DNA of 50,700 bases from a virus (lineage: Duplodnaviria > Caudoviricetes), in the IMG/VR virus record IMGVR_UViG_3300028024_000181, positions 1 through 50,700 of that record; one strand, given 5' to 3'. Below are positions 1 to 10,169 of the stretch, piece by piece. The notes beneath the pieces are model-generated. The model saw only the letters and a program-made list of their open reading frames with translations, searched no databases and was not told the DNA's origin. The position numbers and the translations under genes are program-made. Position 1 is the stretch's first letter, and every line of letters starts with the position of its first letter.

Positions 1-1053
1 TCAACGCAGGGGCCGAACCCGCTCCGGTTTTCTCCGGTAAATCCGCTGCGTTACCTTGCCGTCGGCGTGCGCAAGAAGCGCCTGCGCGTGCTCGAGCGTC
101 TCGGCATCGCTGGCGCATTTCGCCCGCAAATCGTGCTCAGTAAAGTGCTCCGTGATCTTCGTTTCCTCGAGCACGCGGGTCAGGAAATTGCGCCACATCG
201 TGTCCCATCCGCCGGCGCGCCCGGTCTTCTCGTTGAAGTAGCATTCCCCCCGACGATTGCAGAACAACCACGACGCGATCTTCACCGGCCGAACTGACTT
301 GGCCATCTCCACTGCCTCGCGCAGCTGCTCGCTCCATTCGTAAATCAGCCGTTTGCCGGTCGACCCTTCGGTCTTTCCGGGCATCACGTGGATGCCGTCC
401 TCCTTGAGGTCCGACATCGTCAGTCGAAGCAGGTCGCCGCGGCGCATGCCGGTCAGCAGCTTCAGGCGCATATATGCCTGGATGGCCAGCACGCTGCCGG
501 CTTTGCGCTTCGATTCGATCGCAAGGCATTCGACGATCTCCCAATCCTCCACATACCGCGTGCGTGGCTTCTCGCCATCGAGGCGGACCTCGCCTTTAAA
601 TGGGTGCCGGTCGAGGTAGCCCCATTTGACTGCCATCGTGAAGGCGTGCGAAAGCACCTCGATCTCGCGGTGCGCCGAGGTCTTGGCGGCGCGCTTGTCG
701 ACGTATTGGTAAATGTGTCGCGGCTTCAGGGCATGGAGCGCGTGAGCGCCCATGACGGCGCGTAGACGTTTGATCGCGCTGGCGTTCTGGGCCTGCGTCG
801 TGACTTCCTTCTTCGGTACGACCTCGAGCGCATAGCGGTCGAGAAGATCGCCGATGGTCTTCGCATCGTCGAGCGTACTCAGCCGATCGGCCCATGTCTT
901 GTACGCCTCCGGCAGCGTCGAGCCAAGCCGGAATTGCTTCTTGCCGTCCCATGATGATTCGAACCCCGGCGGCACGCGGTAGTAATAGGCGTTGTGATAA
1001 TGCCGCCAACGTCTGGGGAGGCCGTTATTCTCGACCTTACGCTTCTTCGGCAT
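1..1053 (-). CDS. int: Tyrosine recombinase / phage integrase
   Basis: Catalytic residues: GMRRGDL (R), KT, HDLR, LLAH, RIY. Confidence 0.95.
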   Translation of the reverse strand: MPKKRKVENNGLPRRWRHYHNAYYYRVPPGFESSWDGKKQFRLGSTLPEAYKTWADRLSTLDDAKTIGDLLDRYALEVVPKKEVTTQAQNASAIKRLRAVMGAHALHALKPRHIYQYVDKRAAKTSAHREIEVLSHAFTMAVKWGYLDRHPFKGEVRLDGEKPRTRYVEDWEIVECLAIESKRKAGSVLAIQAYMRLKLLTGMRRGDLLRLTMSDLKEDGIHVMPGKTEGSTGKRLIYEWSEQLREAVEMAKSVRPVKIASWLFCNRRGECYFNEKTGRAGGWDTMWRNFLTRVLEETKITEHFTEHDLRAKCASDAETLEHAQALLAHADGKVTQRIYRRKPERVRPLR

Positions 1054-1974: not shown

Positions 1975-2969
1975 CGAGTGCTCCACACGGATGGAAAGCC
2001 GTCATGGGTCTCGCCGTCGAGGGTGCGGCCGGCGGCGCGTTTGCCGACCCGGCGAACGGTGCTGCCATCTTCAAATTGGTGATGAGCGCCGGCGCCGGCC
2101 ACCTCACTGACCGATACCCACTCGCCATTCTGTTTGAACAGGAACGGCACTCGCGCTGCAGCGCACTGATCGCGCAGCGACCGCGCCCATTGCGGATGCA
2201 TCGGACGGGCTGCCGGGCCGCTTTCGCCACCGGCAATAACCCAGTCGATTCCGTCGTCATAGCCGGTCCAGCTCGCGACCTCGCCGCAATGTGGGCAGAG
2301 GGGAATATCCTCATCCGCGCAGTCGGCTCGCTCGATGCTGTCGACGTCGACATAGGACGAGTCTGGGCAAACGTCCATGCACTGGACGCCCGTTGGATCT
2401 AGCCACCGAGCGATGTCAATCGGGCCGAGCATGGGTTCGACGCTTAGGAAGCGAACTTGCGCTGGCGTCTTCAGTAATTTGGGGATATCCCGCTCTGCCT
2501 CTTCTTGATTGACCACCGTAATGCCGAGCCATACATTATCGCGACCGGCAATCCAGTCGTGCGATCGCACACGCGCAATCTCGCGGAAGGCGTTGCCGAT
2601 GCGCTTCGTCAGCAACAGCCAGTTGAGATTCGGAGTGAGTTCGATCAGGTCGCACAAGTCGCGGCGCCAAGTGACGTCGACGTCGGTGTCGAACACATCG
2701 GCAAGCGAAGCGCAGAAGACGCGCTGCCGGCGGCCGTGCTCGGCGAAGAACGATACATGGTTCGCGTTCCACTGAAGCGGCTTGCGCCAGTTGGCCGCCG
2801 ACGTGCGGCGGCGCGTTGCACCGGGCCCCCAGTTGATTGCTGTACCGCTGGCAAACCGCGCATTGCGAGCTTCGGCATAGCAGTGGTCGCAGCCGGGGCT
2901 AACCTTCTGGCATCCTTCCCACGGGTTAAACGTGTGATCGGTCCACTCGATTTTGCTGTTCTCGCTCAA
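1971..2969 (-). CDS. Phage Gp37/Gp68 (DUF5131) family protein
   Basis: SKIEWTDHTFNPWEGCQKVSPGCDHCYA, LLLTKR, FLSVEPMLG, WVIAGGESG motifs. Confidence 0.92.
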   Translation of the reverse strand: MSENSKIEWTDHTFNPWEGCQKVSPGCDHCYAEARNARFASGTAINWGPGATRRRTSAANWRKPLQWNANHVSFFAEHGRRQRVFCASLADVFDTDVDVTWRRDLCDLIELTPNLNWLLLTKRIGNAFREIARVRSHDWIAGRDNVWLGITVVNQEEAERDIPKLLKTPAQVRFLSVEPMLGPIDIARWLDPTGVQCMDVCPDSSYVDVDSIERADCADEDIPLCPHCGEVASWTGYDDGIDWVIAGGESGPAARPMHPQWARSLRDQCAAARVPFLFKQNGEWVSVSEVAGAGAHHQFEDGSTVRRVGKRAAGRTLDGETHDGFPSVWSTR

Positions 2970-3181
2970 TTTTGCATCTCCCGGAGTGTCTCGGCATGCC
3001 TCTCGGTGAGACGCGCGTGGAAAGCCGTCAATGCATGGGTGACCGCGTCAAACTCTTTCTCAATGCCGAGTTTGAAGGCGTCGGGAAGCATGTCGTTAAG
3101 AAGCTTCGCTATGGCCGTCGTCCTGTCATCAAGCCGGTGCGTCGCGTCGTGCAATTGCGCTGACGTATAGTTGCTCATCAC
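2966..3181 (-). CDS. Hypothetical protein
   Basis: Overlap-coupled ORF in early operon. Confidence 0.6.
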   Translation of the reverse strand: MMSNYTSAQLHDATHRLDDRTTAIAKLLNDMLPDAFKLGIEKEFDAVTHALTAFHARLTERHAETLREMQN

Positions 3182-3726
3182 TCACCACCGCTTGCTGGCT
3201 GCGCGGCGCGAAAAGCGTTGCGCATGCGACGGCTGAAGTCGTGTTCGAATCCTCGATCATCAAACCAGGCGACAATTGCTCTATCAATCTGCTCATCCGT
3301 CAGCGCCCGCGTCTGCTCCACTGGTTGCGCTGGCGCGGCAGTTTCGTCACGCTGCGCACGGTACAAATCGACTTCGAGGCGAAGCACCTGTGCGGCCTTC
3401 TTGACCCGTTCGATTGCATTGAGAGATTCATCCTCTTGCCGCTCGTCGTCGCCGATGATAGTGGCGTAGACCTCTGCCAACGTCTCAGTCATGCGCTGCG
3501 CAACGTACGCGTCCTCGCCCAATGCTGGCGCGGCAGGGGCTAACTCCAATAGCCTTCGGATCGCTGTAAGAACAAACTTGGCAGCACCGGCGTGCGCCCT
3601 TATCGGGAAATAGACGCGCGGCTGAACCCGGGCAATCTCTTCGATCTCGGGCGAGAGTGCCTCCGCGAATCCAATGCGACCGCCTTCGGCTATGAGCCAA
3701 CCTACCAGGGTTAGATCAGCAGTCAT
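3178..3726 (-). CDS. Hypothetical phage protein
   Basis: Coupled ORF with ALTDEQI motif common in mosaic early phage proteins. Confidence 0.65.
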   Translation of the reverse strand: MTADLTLVGWLIAEGGRIGFAEALSPEIEEIARVQPRVYFPIRAHAGAAKFVLTAIRRLLELAPAAPALGEDAYVAQRMTETLAEVYATIIGDDERQEDESLNAIERVKKAAQVLRLEVDLYRAQRDETAAPAQPVEQTRALTDEQIDRAIVAWFDDRGFEHDFSRRMRNAFRAAQPASGGE

Positions 3727-4133
3727 GCTTCGCCTCGCGCTTGCTTGATCGCATCGGAGATAGCCACCATGTCCGCCCAGTACGTGCTTTTGGATGGCCG
3801 AAAGTTCGGGTCGGCGATGATCAACTGCGCGAGAAGGCCATCGAGCGCGGCGTGCGCTTTTTCGAGCAGCTGCAAATGATCACTAGACGCCGCCGGCGGC
3901 TGAGGCACATACGGACCGTGCAGCGTGAGCGTGCTGAGGAAGCGGTCCGGTGCTAGCTCGTGATCGATCGCCAGGCAGAAGACGCGGCCGCCCTGCGAGA
4001 CGAGCGGCACCAACAGGTCTGGATTCTTCGTATCGCCGCCGATATAGATGCCTTCCTTGCCGAGCATCGCGCGGACCTGCGGCTGCAGGGGGTCGATCTC
4101 TTCGGCTTGGCCAATGAGGATTGGATTTTTCAC
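3723..4133 (-). CDS. Hypothetical phage protein
   Basis: Coupled ORF with GTGA/ATGA overlaps. Confidence 0.65.
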   Translation of the reverse strand: MKNPILIGQAEEIDPLQPQVRAMLGKEGIYIGGDTKNPDLLVPLVSQGGRVFCLAIDHELAPDRFLSTLTLHGPYVPQPPAASSDHLQLLEKAHAALDGLLAQLIIADPNFRPSKSTYWADMVAISDAIKQARGEA

Positions 4134-4741
4134 TTCGCTTGCTCCTGCAGGGCGGCGATTTTTTCACGCGCGGCGGCGACATCGGCATCGGCATGAGTCG
4201 CCCATTCGGCGCCGTGCGCGAGTACGTGTTTGATCAGCCAATGGAGGCAATAAGCCTGTTCATCTTCGGCGCGCGTCTTGATATCGGCGCCGACGGACCG
4301 GAACAGGTGCGCATAGCGCGCCAGCTGGAAGCACATCATGCCGAGCACGTGGTGCAGCTCGGGTGTCATCTCGGACGGATATGCGAGCGACAACAGATCC
4401 GCGGGCGGCCGAGCGAGGGCCTGGGCAATTCGTGGATGAAACGCGAGGTAGTCGAGATCCGGGTCGACCATGTCGTTGTTCATGATCATGCTGAAGCCCC
4501 AGATCACTCGAAACATGCCGCCCGGCGCCGAATCGAGACACCCCTTTACGCGGTCATAGAACGCACGCAGATGCTCGGAATCGTCGGCATCGAAGAACGT
4601 CGGCTCGTCGGGATCTTCTGCGTTGGGCGCCGACGGGTAATAACCCTTATCGATATCGCCGAGGACGCTCGCGAGTTCTATCGCCGCGTCGATGTCCTGC
4701 TTGGAAGCCTTCGCCATCTTCATCTGGGATTTGATTTTCAC
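4130..4741 (-). CDS. Hypothetical phage protein
   Basis: GTG start overlapping upstream stop (GTGA); protein-like composition. Confidence 0.7.
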   Translation of the reverse strand: MKIKSQMKMAKASKQDIDAAIELASVLGDIDKGYYPSAPNAEDPDEPTFFDADDSEHLRAFYDRVKGCLDSAPGGMFRVIWGFSMIMNNDMVDPDLDYLAFHPRIAQALARPPADLLSLAYPSEMTPELHHVLGMMCFQLARYAHLFRSVGADIKTRAEDEQAYCLHWLIKHVLAHGAEWATHADADVAAAREKIAALQEQAK

Positions 4742-4977
4742 TGTTTGCTCTCCGGTGCGTTGTGGACGCGGCCTTCGTTGTTCGCGATGAATTCCTTCAA
4801 GGCGACCAACATGTCTGCGCGTTCCGCATTGCTGATGTAGTTCATTCGGCCGCCGTTGCCGTCGAGTGGGAATATGAAGAGCGCGAAGCCGTATCCCTTG
4901 AAAATATTGGCCATGACGGCGGCGACATCGTTCATCGACTTCCGGTGCTGCGGCTCGATCTCTCGGTGGTTGCTCAT
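4738..4977 (-). CDS. Conserved hypothetical phage protein
   Basis: GFALFIFP..GRMNYISNAERADM motif; GAGGA RBS. Confidence 0.7.
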   Translation of the reverse strand: MSNHREIEPQHRKSMNDVAAVMANIFKGYGFALFIFPLDGNGGRMNYISNAERADMLVALKEFIANNEGRVHNAPESKQ

Positions 4978-5171
4978 TGGTGTTCCTCAAATAGGTCGGT
5001 CTGCGCCGCTGCATCGACGTGCTCCGGACAGCGGTGCAGATCGGCGCCGACCACCTGTGCGTGCTTCGCACACAGGTGCCTGTCGCACGTCCTGCCGGCC
5101 CTTGTCGGGTAGTCGCACTGGAAGCCGCTCGGTGCATTGCAACCGTCGACAGAGCAGCGGGGCGCACGCAT
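4974..5171 (-). CDS. Small Cys/His-rich putative Zn-binding protein
   Basis: C..C..CDYP..TCDRHLC..HA..C..H pattern; ATGA-coupled to next gene. Confidence 0.65.
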   Translation of the reverse strand: MRAPRCSVDGCNAPSGFQCDYPTRAGRTCDRHLCAKHAQVVGADLHRCPEHVDAAAQTDLFEEHQ

Positions 5172-5541
5172 GCGGCCGCGCGTGCAGACGATTCGGGCGG
5201 TTAGCGGCCCACTCCCTCCACTTAACAGCCTGTTTGCTGATGCTCTCCGTCAGACGGATCACGGACCAATACTGACGGTCCGTGATCTCATTCAAGTCCC
5301 ACGCAAGACGGAAAAGCGACTCGACGATCTTTACGCGCTCGATCAGCTGGGACAGGTGCGGTACCTTGTCCTCGGCGACATTGGCGCGATAGACGAGAAT
5401 CAGCAGTCGCTTCATCTCTTCGACGATATCCTCGCCGATCAATCGCCTGAACGAGCGTTCCATGTTTTTGACGATGCCTGTGACCTTCTTGAAAAGGTCA
5501 AATCCCGTCTTGTACACGTCGAGTTCGGTGTGGAGGGCCAT
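4987..5541 (-). CDS. avd: DGR accessory variability determinant (Avd-like four-helix bundle), with read-through C-terminal extension
   Basis: MALHTELDVYK..F+..IGE..LVYRAN..K..L..LI..LFRL..DL..I..QY..SISKQA.KW pattern; directly downstream of two VR-bearing genes; last ~65 codons look non-coding and overlap the next gene. Confidence 0.85.
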   Translation of the reverse strand: MALHTELDVYKTGFDLFKKVTGIVKNMERSFRRLIGEDIVEEMKRLLILVYRANVAEDKVPHLSQLIERVKIVESLFRLAWDLNEITDRQYWSVIRLTESISKQAVKWREWAANRPNRLHARPHACAPLLCRRLQCTERLPVRLPDKGRQDVRQAPVCEARTGGRRRSAPLSGARRCSGADRPI

Positions 5542-5554
5542 AGTGGCTAAATGA

Positions 5555-6022
5555 TTAAATTACTGAAGGAATAAATCTGCTGACGGCGACCCCGCGGAGC
5601 TCAGCGCTCTTGAGGAGGCTGATCTGGAGGCCGTAGAAGAAGTTCTGACACCAGGCGGAAGCTGGATTGCCCTCATAGTCCTCTTCGAGCCACATGCTCC
5701 CCTCGGCGCAGAACTCCGGGAATGTGGCCTGCAAGAGACGTCCTTCGCGGCGATTGGGGAGCTTGAGGTCGCGATCGCCAACATATGCCTTCGCGGCGTC
5801 GTGATTGACATCGGTAGCTTCGCCCGTGTGCAGGATCAGGTAATAGTCGAGCGAACCGTCTTCCTTGAAGATCGGTCCGGCGACGCGTGCGCCGCTTGGG
5901 AGCGGGATCACCGTCCGCTCGATGACATACTCGGTGGCGATGGCTTGCTGCTTGAACTGCTCGATTAGCGCGCCGATGCGTGCATGTTCGGACTCGATGT
6001 GATCCAGTGTGACGTGGGACAT
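5555..6022 (-). CDS. DGR target protein 2 (DUF1566/CLec-like) with C-terminal variable region
   Basis: LPNRRE..LL..F..W..AWCQNFFYGLQ....KSAELRGVAVSRF; GGAGAG RBS before ATG 6022. Confidence 0.85.
   Translation of the reverse strand: MSHVTLDHIESEHARIGALIEQFKQQAIATEYVIERTVIPLPSGARVAGPIFKEDGSLDYYLILHTGEATDVNHDAAKAYVGDRDLKLPNRREGRLLQATFPEFCAEGSMWLEEDYEGNPASAWCQNFFYGLQISLLKSAELRGVAVSRFIPSVI
5574..5667 (-). repeat. DGR variable repeat, copy A
   Basis: 94 bp, 81/94 identical to 6071-6164; 37-bp invariant 3' part. Confidence 0.9.
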
Positions 6023-6060
6023 TGAATCTCTCCGGATGGAAGTTCGAATGAGTGAATGAA

Positions 6061-6420
6061 TCAAATAGTGAATCTGCTGACGGCGACCCCGCGGAGCTCA
6101 GCGCTCTCGTGGTTGCCGTACTGGCCGCCGTAGTAGCAGTTCTGATACCAGGCGTAAGCTGGATCCCAGTCGACATCGTCGTCGGTCCAGTAGGCCTCGG
6201 GCTTTACGAGATCGCGGTGCTCGTTGTAGATCACGAGAGCGTCGATGCGGTTGTACAGAACGCCGCCGACGCTCTTTGCCCAGTCACGCTGCAGATCGCG
6301 CGGCAGGCGCTTGTCGTTCACGGCGATCAGCACGGTGTGCTCGACATCGCCGTGTTTATTGATGCGGCCGTGCAGATAGATTTGGCCCTCTGCAACGGGC
6401 GGAAGTTGGAGTTGTTGCAT
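6061..6420 (-). CDS. DGR target protein 1 (DUF1566/CLec-like) with C-terminal variable region
   Basis: WAKSVGG.L..R....YWT..AYAWYQNCYYGGQYGNHESAELRGVAVSRF; AAGGAG RBS. Confidence 0.85.
   Translation of the reverse strand: MQQLQLPPVAEGQIYLHGRINKHGDVEHTVLIAVNDKRLPRDLQRDWAKSVGGVLYNRIDALVIYNEHRDLVKPEAYWTDDDVDWDPAYAWYQNCYYGGQYGNHESAELRGVAVSRFTI
6071..6164 (-). repeat. DGR variable repeat, copy B
   Basis: 13 mismatches versus copy A, all at codon positions 1-2. Confidence 0.9.
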
Positions 6421-6435
6421 TACTTCTCCTTAAGA

Positions 6436-6462
6436 GAAAAAGGACCGGGCCGAAGCCCGGCC
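6436..6462 (-). terminator. Intrinsic terminator upstream of DGR target genes
   Basis: Minus strand GGCCGGGC-TTCG-GCCCGGTC followed by CTTTTT. Confidence 0.7.
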
Positions 6463-6488
6463 AAACACACGCCGCGCCGATGAGAGGG

Positions 6489-6704
6489 TCAGCGCGCCGG
6501 ACTACTTTGTTTGACGTTCGAGGCGCCGCGTGCGATCACGACCGGACCGACGTGCAGCACGACTCGCTCGCCGCGATCGCGCGCGAGCATCTCGACGAAT
6601 TCGGCGCAGAGCACCTGCGTCGCGCTGTCCGTCGGTACCCGCGAAGTGGCGTACACGCGCGCAGCGTCCAGGAACGCTCCGCGGCGGCGCGGTTCGCCGT
6701 ACAT
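6489..6704 (-). CDS. Hypothetical protein
   Basis: TGATG-coupled to upstream gene. Confidence 0.5.
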   Translation of the reverse strand: MYGEPRRRGAFLDAARVYATSRVPTDSATQVLCAEFVEMLARDRGERVVLHVGPVVIARGASNVKQSSPAR

Positions 6705-7228
6705 CAGTTGCCCGCCACTCGATAGTTGGCCGGCTGCGTATCGGTGCGCGATTGCAGCTCGGCGGGTTTGAGGGAGCAGTCGAAGCCGGCGGCGCGGTAG
6801 GCGTCATAGACCTCTTTGCTCACCTGGCAGCGGATGAGGACAGCCGCTTTCTGCAGGTTCGTTTTCGTCGTCGCGTCGTCGGTGACGGTGGACTGACGAA
6901 CGGTCTCGGCTGCGGCGACCTCAAGCTTGCAGTCGAGCAGGCTATGGGATGCGCCGCCGACCAGCGACACGCCAGCGATCGCACCACCGAACTGGACGGT
7001 CTGGCCACAGTTCATCTGAGAGAAAGAAGACGCGTAAGCCCCCAGGACCGGAGCCGAAACATTCCGAACGGTCTCCGTTGTATGTTCCGGTGTCTGCGAA
7101 AATTGGATCGTGCCCTGCGCAGTGGACTGGGACGCGCTCGATTGCGTCGCTACGGACGACGATTGAGCTTGTGCGTGGCCGATAGCCCCCAGTGCTAGAA
7201 TCAACGCGACGGCGAATTTGGTGTTCAT
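6704..7228 (-). CDS. Secreted four-cysteine protein
   Basis: Signal peptide MNTKFAVALILALGAIGHAQA; Ser/Thr/Gln-rich N-terminus; four Cys. Confidence 0.8.
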   Translation of the reverse strand: MNTKFAVALILALGAIGHAQAQSSSVATQSSASQSTAQGTIQFSQTPEHTTETVRNVSAPVLGAYASSFSQMNCGQTVQFGGAIAGVSLVGGASHSLLDCKLEVAAAETVRQSTVTDDATTKTNLQKAAVLIRCQVSKEVYDAYRAAGFDCSLKPAELQSRTDTQPANYRVAGN

Positions 7229-7290
7229 CGTTACACCCCCAAGGTGTGTGGTCGGGCCTTCGATATTTCCGGTATCGAAGGCCTTCTTCC

Positions 7291-7725
7291 TTATTGGCTG
7301 AAGGAATAGCTGCCGGCGAGGTTCGTGTAGCCGTAGCCGCTGACGTCGGTGCCCACGCCCGACTTGCTCGAGCCATAGCCCGAACCACTCGTATAGCCGC
7401 CAGCATTCGCGTTCGAGACGCTGCCGGTGTAGCTGCCGGACGCCGATGCACCGCCGCCGATGCCTGCGAAACCGTACGAGCCGATGCCGGCGCCGATGAC
7501 GGTCCCGCCGATTGCATAGCCGCCGCCGGCGGAATTGCTCCACTGCGACGAAGAGCCATTGCCGTTCTGACCGGCCTCGGCCTGCGAGCCGCCCGACGTG
7601 CTGGACGACGAACCAAAGCCACCGCTGAACGACAGCGAACTGTTGCTCGAATAACCGCCTGCGAATGCCGCCGGTGCCGCGGCGAGGGAAAGTGTTGCGA
7701 GGACTGCGAGAGTGATGCGCTTCAT
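7291..7725 (-). CDS. Secreted Gly/Ser-rich low-complexity protein
   Basis: Signal peptide MKRITLAVLATLSLAAAPAAFA; mature part dominated by G/S/A/N/Y; GAGG RBS. Confidence 0.85.
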   Translation of the reverse strand: MKRITLAVLATLSLAAAPAAFAGGYSSNSSLSFSGGFGSSSSTSGGSQAEAGQNGNGSSSQWSNSAGGGYAIGGTVIGAGIGSYGFAGIGGGASASGSYTGSVSNANAGGYTSGSGYGSSKSGVGTDVSGYGYTNLAGSYSFSQ

Positions 7726-7782
7726 GGTCTACCTCAGGTTGGTTGGTCGCGCGGTAGTCCGGCCGCGCCCGGTACTGCGGAG

Positions 7783-7959
7783 TCAGTCGTGTTTCGCGTC
7801 TTCCGGCGGCCGCTCGATGGCGGCGCGGTAATAGGCTTCGGCAAAGCGGTATAGCGCGCTGACCGGGCCCGACACGCTTTGATATTCCTGGCGTCCGATC
7901 CGACCGTCGAGAACGACGGTTAGGCCAGCAGCGCGCGCGAGTTCAATGATGTCGGGCAT
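7783..7959 (-). CDS. Small conserved hypothetical protein
   Basis: IIELARAAGLTVVLDGRIGRQEYQSVSG..AL.RFA motif. Confidence 0.7.
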   Translation of the reverse strand: MPDIIELARAAGLTVVLDGRIGRQEYQSVSGPVSALYRFAEAYYRAAIERPPEDAKHD

Positions 7960-7961
7960 CG

Positions 7962-10169
7962 TCAATCCGTCGGGAATGGCCAAGCAGCGGCCGGATTGAG
8001 CGGGCGCCTGATCGTCGGTTTGGCGCCGTCGACGAGCGGCATTTCGGTCGCCGCCGTGCTGTTCGCGGGAGCAGATTTTTTCACTGCAATCTTCTCCGCG
8101 CTCGCCGGTGGCGGAGCCGTTTTTGTCGCTGCCGGCTTTTTAACTGGCGAAACTTTCTTCGCGACCTTGCGTGCGGGCGCAGCTACGGCGGCCGCCGCCG
8201 GTGACGGCGCATCGTCCACACGCGTGGGCTCGGCGATCTTCTTCGCGCCGCGCTTCGGCGGGGCCTTCTGCTTGGCAGCCTTTACCACCGGCGGCGTTTG
8301 GGGACGAAGCAGGGCAGGCAGCCAGCCGGTATCGGAGAGCAACTCCTCGGCTTTCTCAGCGAGCTCGGCCTTTTTGAGCTTGTCGACGTGCTTGATGCCG
8401 AGCTCGCCGGTGCCGACCTCTTCGAGTGCTTCGATGATTACCGGCTTGGCCACCTGGCCGAGAAAGGACTTGCGCGTCGGTTGCCACCAGTCGGCCATGT
8501 TCAGCCCGATAGCCTCCTCGACGTGCTCGAGTGGCCGCGAGTGATCATTGCTGGTGGTGGTATTGATGCAGGCCGCCGTGCAGAACGCCAGCAGCTCGAC
8601 AACTTCCACCACCTCGCGCTCGGCCACCCATGCAAAAAGCTTCGCCGGATCCTCGGGCAATTCGGTCTGCAATTGCGAGCGGCGTTCGGTGAGCGCTGCC
8701 CACGCCTTGCTTTGCTCCATGTCGTCCGCGCTGGACGCGAGGTTCGTGAGCTGCTCGGTCGGCACGATGGAGAGACCGCCTGATCCGTAATAACCGTTGT
8801 AGATCACCTTCGCGAGCAGCGTGGAGCACAGCAGATCGAGCGCCACGCGCGGTGCTTCGAGCAGATGAGCAGACATGGCGGCCGAGCGGTTCGCCGTGAG
8901 TTTGCGCAGCAGAACTTCGCTGTAGGTGACCTTTTCCGGTTCGACGGCTTCGCCAGCAGCAACGCGCTTCTCACGCTCGGCTTTTGCCTTGGCCTTCTCT
9001 TTTTCGGCCGCCACCTTCGGGTCGATCATGCCGCGATGAATCTCGAGACTGCCATGATGGTTGATGCCGATCACGGCGCCGGCCGACTTCTTCTGGCGAT
9101 CAGTGAAGGTTTCAAGCGAGCTTTTGATCAGCTTGATGCGGTAGAACGCCTTCTCCGCGCGATGATTAAGTTCCTCGACCTCTCCGGTCGTAAGCTCATC
9201 GTCTTCGTCATCGTTGACGGCATCGGTGGCCGCGCGCGCAGTTTCTTCCAGCGTGGTGATCTCTGTCTTTTCTTCGTCCGTAAGTCCGCGCACCTTCGGC
9301 TTGCTGCGGCCATAGGCATTCGTTTCGTTCCAGCCGAGTTCCGGGTAGATCTTCACAAACGACCAGCCCTCTGCACGCAGTTCGGTAGCCGCAGCTTCCA
9401 GCTTCTCCGCGGCGAGCCGTTGCATCAGCGCCATGTCGGCGACGTAGCCGCTGTCCGGACCGCCGAAGAGATCGCGCAGCACGGTCCCGCCAGCGGCTTC
9501 GTATGCGTCAAGGCCGACGAACTTCGCCGCGCGGACGCTCGACGCATCCGTTTTGCCCTTGGTCAGTGCCTGCCGCAGAGAGTCCGCATGTTTATAGAAC
9601 TGCGATGCGCCGTACCAAACCTTGCATTGCAATGCCTGATCATCGGTGAGCGTGAAGGCCTGCAACTGCTCGAGGTTCATCCCGCCCTTGCGATAGATCT
9701 CGACCAGTTCCGGCGCCACCTTGGCCAGCAGCAGGCGGCGTTGCACGACAAGCGGCGTGCAGCCGAATTGCGCGGCGATATCCTCGACCGGCGAGCCTTC
9801 CTCGAAAAGCACCTTGAACGCGTAGAACTCGTCGGCCGGGTGCATCGGCGCGCGCCCGGTGTTTTCCGCCACGCTCGCGGCGAGCGCACGATCTGGAGTG
9901 GTGAGCAGGCAAAACACGGGGTGGTCCGCCGGCACCTTGCCCTGTTGCTCGAGCAGCTTGAACGCGCGATATCGTCGGCCGCCGCCGACCACGCCGTAAT
10001 TGCCGTCTTCCGGGATGGTGATCAGATTCTGCAACTGGCTCTGTGACTCCAGCAAAGCGGCGAGCTCAGATACATCGCTCGTATCGTTCGGGCGTGCATT
10101 CAGCGGCGAGATATGCAGCTTGTTGAGCGGCACCGTAATGAGTTGGCCGTCGACGGTCTGTTTTTTCAT
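7962..10169 (-). CDS. Large ParB/RepB/Spo0J-family protein (plasmid-type)
   Basis: ParB_N: LQNL..GGGRRYRA..EN..R..MHPADE; HTH IAAQFG....VQRRL.LA; K/A/P-rich tail ending AAAWPFPT. Confidence 0.9.
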   Translation of the reverse strand: MKKQTVDGQLITVPLNKLHISPLNARPNDTSDVSELAALLESQSQLQNLITIPEDGNYGVVGGGRRYRAFKLLEQQGKVPADHPVFCLLTTPDRALAASVAENTGRAPMHPADEFYAFKVLFEEGSPVEDIAAQFGCTPLVVQRRLLLAKVAPELVEIYRKGGMNLEQLQAFTLTDDQALQCKVWYGASQFYKHADSLRQALTKGKTDASSVRAAKFVGLDAYEAAGGTVLRDLFGGPDSGYVADMALMQRLAAEKLEAAATELRAEGWSFVKIYPELGWNETNAYGRSKPKVRGLTDEEKTEITTLEETARAATDAVNDDEDDELTTGEVEELNHRAEKAFYRIKLIKSSLETFTDRQKKSAGAVIGINHHGSLEIHRGMIDPKVAAEKEKAKAKAEREKRVAAGEAVEPEKVTYSEVLLRKLTANRSAAMSAHLLEAPRVALDLLCSTLLAKVIYNGYYGSGGLSIVPTEQLTNLASSADDMEQSKAWAALTERRSQLQTELPEDPAKLFAWVAEREVVEVVELLAFCTAACINTTTSNDHSRPLEHVEEAIGLNMADWWQPTRKSFLGQVAKPVIIEALEEVGTGELGIKHVDKLKKAELAEKAEELLSDTGWLPALLRPQTPPVVKAAKQKAPPKRGAKKIAEPTRVDDAPSPAAAAVAAPARKVAKKVSPVKKPAATKTAPPPASAEKIAVKKSAPANSTAATEMPLVDGAKPTIRRPLNPAAAWPFPTD

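Follow-up and report, generated by a model that had tools for sequence, protein, structure and literature searches.

The IMG/VR provirus record IMGVR_UViG_3300028024_000181 was analysed over its whole length of 50,700 bases, which we call the window. The record is rated 100% complete, its host is a soil bacterium, and copies of the provirus recur in soil-metagenome runs. The subject of this analysis is a cassette of three genes with the features of a diversity-generating retroelement (DGR). All three are encoded on the minus strand, in the order T1, T2 and avd. The first target gene, T1 (6061-6420), encodes a DUF1566-like or C-type-lectin-like protein of 119 aa that ends in a C-terminal variable region (VR). 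The second target gene, T2 (5555-6022), encodes 155 aa from the ATG at 6022, and a C-type-lectin-like fold is predicted for residues ~37-153. The full open reading frame (ORF) of avd spans 4987-5541. An initial annotation of the DNA letters had noted that an Avd-like gene follows the targets. This is true of residues 1 to ~116 (avd', 5195-5541), from which the native last ~9 codons and the stop are gone. The remainder (4987-5194, 69 aa) is read-through into unrelated DNA and has no counterpart in Avd homologues, which measure 117-129 aa compared with the 184 aa of the window ORF.

T1 and T2 share a repeat of 94 nt (5574-5667 and 6071-6164) with 13 mismatches. As the initial annotation had stated, the mismatches affect the first or second codon position and spare the third, which was confirmed in both reading frames (13/13). 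The chance that 13 mismatches all lie outside position 3 is (2/3)^13, or ~0.005. The last 37 nt are identical between the copies. This 37-mer forms the invariant, G+C-rich 3' end of VR1 (6071-6107) and of VR2 (5574-5610), resembles an initiation of mutagenic homing (IMH) element, and is common to the template repeat (TR) in relatives. The variable parts proper are VR1 (6108-6164) and VR2 (5611-5667). Even when three mismatches were allowed the 37-mer occurred only twice in the window, and none of 100 shuffled sequences gave two matches.

A template and a reverse transcriptase (RT) were searched for in the complete record. BLAST of the VR at E <= 10 returned the two known copies only, and searching with the TRs of three relatives at word size 7 matched VR1 and VR2 only. 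The RVT_1 profile (PF00078) gave no candidate in the 50.7 kb. Using tblastn with the RTs of two relatives, the best match had an E-value of 0.17 and represented the TR-overlapping stretch of the RT frame lying on VR1. The previously reported lack of a third repeat copy and of an RT in the window was thereby borne out. A tyrosine integrase gene (4-1053, minus strand; Pfam Phage_integrase) closes the arm, and therefore all sequence downstream of avd to the prophage end is in view. The provirus has neither an RT nor a TR of its own, as an autonomous DGR would, and the cassette is unable to diversify by itself.

The target proteins are related to each other and to a family that databases name 'DUF1566 domain-containing protein'. 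The last 64 residues of T1 are homologous to T2 (hhalign probability 99%), and upstream of the repeat the two proteins are 38.75% identical. T1 orthologues in six relatives are 68-85% identical, with the variation concentrated in the VR. Against Pfam Lcl_C (DUF1566), T2 scored 14.5 bits (cut-off 34.9) and T1 gave no match. A model of T2 calculated from 23 sequences had a predicted local distance difference test (pLDDT) score of 81.5. Compared by VIA-align, residues 37-153 matched C-type-lectin-like domains, namely the C-terminal domain of Bd2740 (Z 7.6), the C-terminal domain of Legionella Lcl (Z 6.5) and the DGR variable proteins Mtd (Z 4.8), TvpA (4.6) and TaqVP (4.3). These Z values are all under 8 and therefore middling; the list of matches is homogeneous and consists mostly of C-type-lectin-like domains. 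Foldseek with T2 returned only weak rows with E-values of at least 0.1, and the profiles of T1 and T2 had no matches among PDB sequences at E <= 10. We conclude with moderate confidence, on the basis of the model, that the variable region of T2 is carried on a C-type-lectin-like fold. T1 and T2 are candidate ligand-binding proteins. Inspection of both by eye revealed no signal peptide or lipobox, and tblastn found no third T-like ORF in the window. Such isolated ORFs are seen in some relatives. In one of the relatives' genomes a lone T-like lectin-fold ORF (L049, G264:C1:2580340-2580690) lies ~6 kb from an intact cassette, and in Burkholderia phage Magia the remote T-like ORF CPT_Magia_057 was called a possible DGR target with an IMH-like region by its annotators.

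The identity of avd' was examined by profile and structure comparisons. It matched PHROG 3206, 'Avd protein of DGR', with an E-value of 5.1e-21 and NCBIfam NF033474 (DivGenRetAVD) with 1.3e-8, the latter at 35 bits and below the cut-off of 80. Pfam bAvd matched all seven orthologues, in each case below threshold (25-27 bits, cut-off 40). A model from 20 sequences showed a four-helix bundle with a pLDDT of 89.5. In Foldseek this model matched BPP-1 Avd (4dwl) with a query TM-score (TMq) of 0.84 and a root mean square deviation (rmsd) of 1.5, as well as the Avd chains of the DGR ribonucleoprotein 8ub7/8ub8; the E-values of these matches are weak (1e-3 to 1e-1), and the usual caveat for helix bundles applies. 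Searching the Avd profile against PDB sequences gave a best match at E 0.1, which was unrelated.

Relatives with and without a DGR core

Distant DNA matches of the region were found in the Burkholderia phages Magia, vB_PL1 and vB_E192a. In the annotation of Magia a lectin-fold 'potential DGR target' comes first, then another small gene, and after it the genes for an Avd-like protein and an RT; vB_PL1 has the same order. A literature search for Burkholderia phage Magia found no paper. Closer relatives are the IMG/VR proviruses L003, L004, L011 and L013 and the loci L015-L018 in genomes of Paraburkholderia nodosa, Pandoraea bronchicola, Burkholderia sp. LMG 13014 and a Paraburkholderia metagenome-assembled genome. 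By tblastn, all eight of the first relatives examined encode T1, T2, Avd and an RT of ~450 aa in the same order. RVT_1 scored above its cut-off in 4/4 of the relatives' records searched. The TR of the relatives is located between avd and the RT domain, and in L003 and L004 together 46/46 VR/TR mismatches occur at TR adenines.

These TRs served as a reference for the window. This makes the adenine test of its VRs an indirect one. All 13 mismatches between VR1 and VR2 fall in TR-adenine columns of L003 and L004; with the L004 TR, which has 27 adenines among the 92 columns compared, the hypergeometric probability is ~9e-9. The same was obtained with the TRs of 6/7 relatives, and with that of L018 the count was 12/13. 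The initial annotation had interpreted the mismatch pattern as a DGR footprint and had named as a test that relatives should have a TR with adenine at the variable positions; both the interpretation and the test are upheld by these alignments. The TR that it predicted was close overall. It wrongly placed adenine at three first-codon positions, at which the TRs of 7/7 relatives and both VRs have T, T and C.

The positions outside the adenine columns were informative as well. Over the 94 nt, VR1 and VR2 are the same at all non-adenine positions. Compared with the TR of each relative, the VRs of the window differ at 3-9 non-adenine positions, and the differing letters are common to both VRs. Each relative genome shows the same private agreement among its own VR1, VR2 and TR. 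Therefore, the VRs of the window were homogenised by a TR of their own lineage, which is now gone from the provirus. A degenerate pattern of the 37-nt end matched VR1, VR2 and TR in 7/8 related stretches. The 37-mer in the TRs of L018 and L019 differs in the last base alone.

To describe the family we used T2 as query and one genome per species. The survey returned 23 loci in 20/213 Paraburkholderia genomes and eight loci in six of the 94 Burkholderia genomes that were scored; one further genome was left unscored. Among the 31 loci from these 307 genomes, 30 contain the T1-T2 pair, and the 31st is the lone ORF L049. Two family matches per genome were found in 3/20 Paraburkholderia and 2/6 Burkholderia genomes, the second match in G264 being L049. 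Intact cassettes, in which avd and RT are accompanied by a TR that lies 530-543 nt beyond the stop of T2, make up 23/30 of the two-target loci, and in 23/23 of them the Avd orthologue sits between T2 and TR-RT. In the intact loci 256/259 VR2/TR mismatches are at TR adenines. All three exceptions belong to the closest intact relative (L019, in G101), where they account for three of ten mismatches; they may reflect the start of decay or an alignment-edge effect.

The other 7/30 two-target loci (L022, L026, L027, L034, L035, L038 and L041; 7/23 of the Paraburkholderia loci) are TR-less and have no full RT. They occur in six Paraburkholderia genomes (G133, G024, G013, G110, G010 and G176). In these loci an HNH_3 endonuclease gene of ~150 aa (PF13392, above cut-off) replaces avd, TR and most of the RT, and an RT C-terminal remnant of 40-115 aa stays. 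It looks as if a gene of the homing-endonuclease type had taken the place of the DGR core, either recurrently or by inheritance. Five of the six genomes were searched for a full-length related RT, and four of these five contained none. The fifth holds, away from the cassette, a related RT that is split into two overlapping frames (G024:C3:2806466-2807420; query 137-264 and 257-455) and resembles a frameshifted DGR RT. The HNH-type loci and the window both keep T1-T2 with their VRs and have no TR and no functional RT. In the HNH-type loci avd is lost and an RT remnant is kept, whereas in the window avd is kept and no RT is left. This latter architecture was present in 0/31 surveyed loci. The orphan cassette described by the initial annotation is real with respect to the absence of TR and RT, yet it is not unique, as 7/30 related loci are TR-less by a different event.

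All DGR-bearing relatives are homologous to the window from ~6430 to 5188-5196, where the match breaks off. The break lies ~9 codons before the avd stop of the relatives, just ahead of the RT start. Homology to L003 and L017 restarts only at 2968, with 2.2 kb in between. Proteins of this segment led to the DGR-less sibling proviruses L050, L051 and L052, in which none of T1, T2, Avd and RT was found. L052 and L050 align with the window from 5194 leftwards, and L052 and L051 align on the right side up to 6434-6437. L052 aligns over 8003-6434 and then directly over 5194-4967, with a filler of ~246 nt in place of the 1,240-nt cassette of the window; this filler encodes a 78-aa ORF without a Pfam match. 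In an independent metagenome contig, from run X9, positions 5194 and 6435 are linked by 354 other letters. Cassette parts without cover in X9 were not counted as evidence, only the contig that joins across them.

The left junction of the cassette therefore stands at 5194/5195, where homology to DGR-bearing relatives stops and that to DGR-less siblings starts. The right boundary of the slot at 6434/6435, supported by L052 (homology 8003-6434) and by the joint in X9, is identical in DGR-bearing and DGR-less relatives. The segment 2969-5194 (minus strand) takes the place of the TR, the RT and the following genes of the relatives; its six small ORFs are shared with L050-L052. The phage family thus possesses a cargo slot, constant in its boundaries, that can be filled by a full DGR, by a truncated DGR as in the window, or by short fillers. 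The native avd stop was lost at the junction, and therefore avd reads 69 codons into foreign DNA.

VR2 alleles in soil metagenomes

Twenty public runs match part of the stretch. Four of them (X1, X2, X5 and X9) were compared with the window, in all cases as contigs. X1 may be the source run of the window; X2 and X5 derive from two other studies. X2 and X5 contain the same TR-less provirus as the window. Contigs of X2 (2764-5603) and X5 (2500-5603) run across the 5194 junction with no other letters, and contigs on the right side (X2, 6078-7508 and 7495-8000; X5, 6078-8000) likewise contain none, giving no differences in the flanks over ~5.4 kb. In X1, X2 and X5 no contigs branch at 5194.

A different result was obtained for VR2. 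In X2 and X5 a contig of 520 nt (5581-6100) carries 14 other letters, all within VR2 (5613-5658), at positions 5613, 5616, 5617, 5620, 5622, 5623, 5628, 5629, 5634, 5635, 5638, 5640, 5649 and 5658. The alternative letters account for 100% of the depth in X2 and X5 and for none in X1. All 14 sites correspond to TR-adenine columns in the TRs of 6/7 relatives (P ~1e-9), and all 14 are at codon positions 1-2. Ten VR2 codons are changed between the alleles, none of them to a stop. VR1 is identical in X1, X2 and X5 (contigs from 6078, 0 other letters). An assembly chimera with VR1 was considered and is unlikely: the longest stretch that the new allele has in common with VR1 and not with VR2 is ~16 nt, which is shorter than the 31-letter index words. 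Both VR2 alleles sit on the TR-less architecture. The 14 changes are confined to adenine columns and the flanks show no difference, and therefore VR2 was rewritten very recently by adenine mutagenesis. The earlier proposal that the cassette had 'fixed two selected variants' is contradicted for VR2 by the allele of X2 and X5.

Read depth was used to estimate the copy number of the 37-mer. In X5 it forms a unitig of its own, exactly 37 nt long, with a depth of 51.4 compared with 26-28 in the flanks. Values calculated from depth bins were ~964 (flanks ~420-490) in X1 and ~20 (flanks ~9-12) in X2. All three runs are in line with two copies. A third copy would raise the 37-mer to three times the depth of the flanks, and the value seen is about twofold. 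This speaks against a cognate TR as abundant as the genome itself and leaves room for a helper that is rare or for a TR that ends differently. Contigs of lower depth (~53-64 compared with ~420-490) from a related phage are also present in X1; they cover window positions 2766-2967 and ~6277-6330, and one of them matches part of T1.

Two additional approaches gave no information on the age of the cassette or on its distribution. A lineage-specific 36-mer was found in none of the JGI metagenome contigs, among which the window's own record possibly is not included. The number of third-position mismatches between VR1 and VR2 was tried as a clock for the time since TR loss and did not separate TR-less from intact loci. 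The count was flawed, with segment bounds running past the VR in some loci, and was dropped.

Origin and present state of the cassette

The cassette is probably a very young, non-autonomous remnant of the family DGR that arose when the phage recombined with a sibling lacking a DGR. In this family the full module T1-T2-avd-TR-RT occupies the cargo slot, which is flanked by a terminator on one side and by the early-left genes toward the integrase on the other, and the C-terminal ligand-binding loops of T1 and T2 would have been written by adenine-specific mutagenic retrohoming. Recombination with the backbone of a DGR-less sibling, with the joint at 5194/5195, then probably removed the last ~9 avd codons, the TR and the RT. 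The window would represent the right part of a DGR module combined with the left arm of a DGR-less backbone. Two C-type-lectin-like targets, the IMH-like 37-nt VR ends and a foreign-tailed avd are left. The TR-RT of a DGR-bearing parent or sibling, near-identical to this provirus, was presumably the source of the last homing into VR2. This could have happened by two routes, which we consider about equally likely. Either TR-RT worked in trans after the provirus had become TR-less, or homing took place in the parent, and homologous recombination subsequently transferred the allele or the junction.

Several points weigh against this account. Scores against the Avd and Lcl_C models fall short of their curated cut-offs. 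Recombination is deduced from the mosaic structure only, and the alignment at the 5194 junction showed by eye no convincing microhomology. Folding as DNA of the 61 nt that follow the VRs revealed no BPP-1-type hairpin (z -1.45 and +0.65). This element is also missing in relatives with intact DGRs (L003), and therefore it is not a defining feature of this lineage. X2 and X5 possibly stem from one campaign or strain, so that there are effectively two alleles, and contigs drop rare variants, which makes rare helpers and VR heterogeneity within a sample invisible. X1 and X2 hold a second contig of lower depth (63.9 and 5.33, respectively) that matches ~50 nt of T1. A related cassette thus co-occurs in these two samples, and a live helper there is possible. 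The searches for TR and RT covered the provirus, which leaves a possible place for TR-RT elsewhere in the host; a protein collection places the window on a contig of ~285 kb.

A more specific version of this history, which we put forward only tentatively, is that the module was rewritten at VR2 in trans by the TR-RT of a sibling phage after its own TR-RT had been lost. The cassette would then be a natural non-autonomous DGR target module. If this holds, DGR targets can persist and keep evolving as passengers, using machinery encoded by co-resident or co-infecting relatives, and surveys anchored on the RT miss this class altogether.

It is unlikely that the cassette is still served in trans today, with RT, TR and Avd encoded elsewhere in the host, by a family prophage or a chromosomal DGR, and continuing to rewrite VR1 and VR2. 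The restriction of the polymorphism to 14 TR-adenine sites in otherwise identical TR-less proviruses fits such a supply, as do the intact IMH-like ends of both VRs, the two family matches in some of the surveyed genomes and the second T1-like contig in X1 and X2. There is also precedent: plasmid-supplied avd, TR and brt work for BPP-1 according to PMC5758913 and PMC3240598, and PMC3521204 reads distal targets beside a decayed RT in Pseudogulbenkiania as being served by the remaining RT. The depth data speak against it, since the 37-mer, which is part of the TR in 7/8 related stretches, is twofold and not threefold relative to the flanks in each of X1, X2 and X5. The X5 unitig measures exactly 37 nt, which leaves no branch from a TR end of the L019 type. 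Moreover, VR1 is unchanged across the three samples. A helper TR must equal the VRs at all non-adenine positions, which is the case for 0/7 of the relatives' TRs, and most of the searched genomes with HNH-type cassettes (4/5) hold no full-length related RT. The initial annotation had offered two models, a frozen cassette and one served in trans. The absence of TR-RT on which both are based was borne out. The interpretation is supported in part, and a resident trans TR is not supported, given the ~2x depth of the 37-mer.

A long-frozen fossil, whose TR-RT disappeared in the distant past and whose VRs represent selected variants that became fixed and now evolve as ordinary genes, is very improbable for the window. 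The provirus does lack TR and RT, and the 7/30 related loci in which TR-less T1-T2 pairs persist with intact frames indicate that frozen targets can be kept. The fossil is a real state elsewhere in the family, at the HNH-type loci, and is disfavoured here. Two VR2 alleles that are 14 adenine sites apart on ~5.4 kb of flanks with 0 differences argue against a long period of ordinary evolution. The absence of any non-adenine or third-position difference between VR1 and VR2 over 94 nt points in the same direction, although this measure did not separate TR-less from intact relatives. An origin independent of DGRs, as a C-terminal module duplicated under diversifying selection and with a codon bias from selection alone, would suit the paralogy of T1 and T2 over the last 64 residues and can practically be dismissed, because all variable sites, whether they distinguish VR1 from VR2 or one sample from another, coincide with adenine columns of the relatives' TRs, VR2/TR mismatches in intact relatives are at adenine in 256/259 cases, an Avd gene is adjacent, and the T1 and T2 proteins are only 38.75% identical upstream of the repeat.

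The probable young remnant is of more general interest. With 7/30 loci and the window lacking a TR and a working RT, loss of the mutator with retention of the diversified genes looks like a regular fate in this family. DGR catalogues are built by finding the RT first, and therefore RT-less cassettes are uncounted. The young loss in the window could be used to ask whether DGRs act across genomes in nature, and what becomes of a hypervariable binding protein once diversification stops. The cassette is also a ready-made recipient for trans-complementation tests.

Flanking genes and comparison with known systems

A terminator-like hairpin with a T-run (6443-6462, minus strand) lies directly upstream of T1; in phage Magia the corresponding position is annotated as a terminator. 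On the other side of the cassette, the six ORFs of the replacing segment were compared with PHROGs, NCBIfam and Pfam. The only family match was that of a 79-aa ORF to phrog_35296, to which no function is assigned there; NCBIfam gave none. A Cys/His-rich ORF of 65 aa (4974-5171, minus strand) overlaps the avd tail in another frame and is kept in the DGR-less L052. Its Pfam matches are weak and of zinc-finger type (SBP, E 0.018). Upstream of the cassette, the ORF at 7291-7725 (minus strand) encodes a Gly/Ser-rich protein of 144 aa with an N-terminal hydrophobic leader and no Pfam match, and the ORF at 6704-7543 (minus strand) has a leader-like segment. Both are kept in L003 and may encode moron-like secreted proteins.

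The DiGReF survey (PMC3521204) is in line with such RT-first catalogues, as its program overlooked targets located over 5 kb away from the RT. It also describes Pseudogulbenkiania sp. NH8B, in which, like in the window, a target cassette lacks its own RT and diversification is credited to an RT elsewhere. In that case one chromosome also carries the intact DGR and the RT of the cassette is mutated, whereas in the window the RT is deleted, the cassette resides in a prophage and no helper is known. In the literature seen, which was partial, an avd-retaining prophage cassette without TR and RT and with adenine-site polymorphism between samples was not found; supplements of the surveys may list members of the family. 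The DGR family, the class of targets and action in trans are already known.

The targets resemble a described class. Short targets consisting of DUF1566 only, with VRs of the CLec2 type, were reported by Wu et al. 2018 (PMC5758913). As in LdtA of Legionella, T1 and T2 comprise little beyond a DUF1566-like domain that carries the VR at its C-terminus. They differ from LdtA, which is a surface lipoprotein, in that by eye they have no signal peptide or lipobox.

The DGR of phage BPP-1 (mtd-avd-TR-brt) shares with the window a VR at the 3' end of a gene for a C-type-lectin-fold protein, changes limited to adenines of the template and to codons of the AAC type, a G+C-rich invariant end in common with the TR, and an encoded Avd four-helix bundle (TMq 0.84 to 4dwl). 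For BPP-1, PMC3240598 reports that Avd, TR and RT can be supplied in trans and that a hairpin or cruciform shortly downstream of the VR is required. The window differs in having no TR, no RT and no hairpin after the VR, and in the replaced 3' end of avd. Its targets are two small tandem genes (119 and 155 aa) in the early-left or integrase arm, rather than one tail-fibre protein encoded among the tail genes.

The closest known systems are those of Magia (MT701587), vB_PL1 and the prophage relatives, which have the same gene order, slot and VR/TR design as the window. T1, T2 and Avd of the window are 44-47% identical to the proteins of Magia and vB_PL1 and 68-96% to those of the prophage relatives. 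In all of these a TR and an RT of 440-480 aa follow directly after avd, whereas the window continues from 5194 leftwards with unrelated genes.

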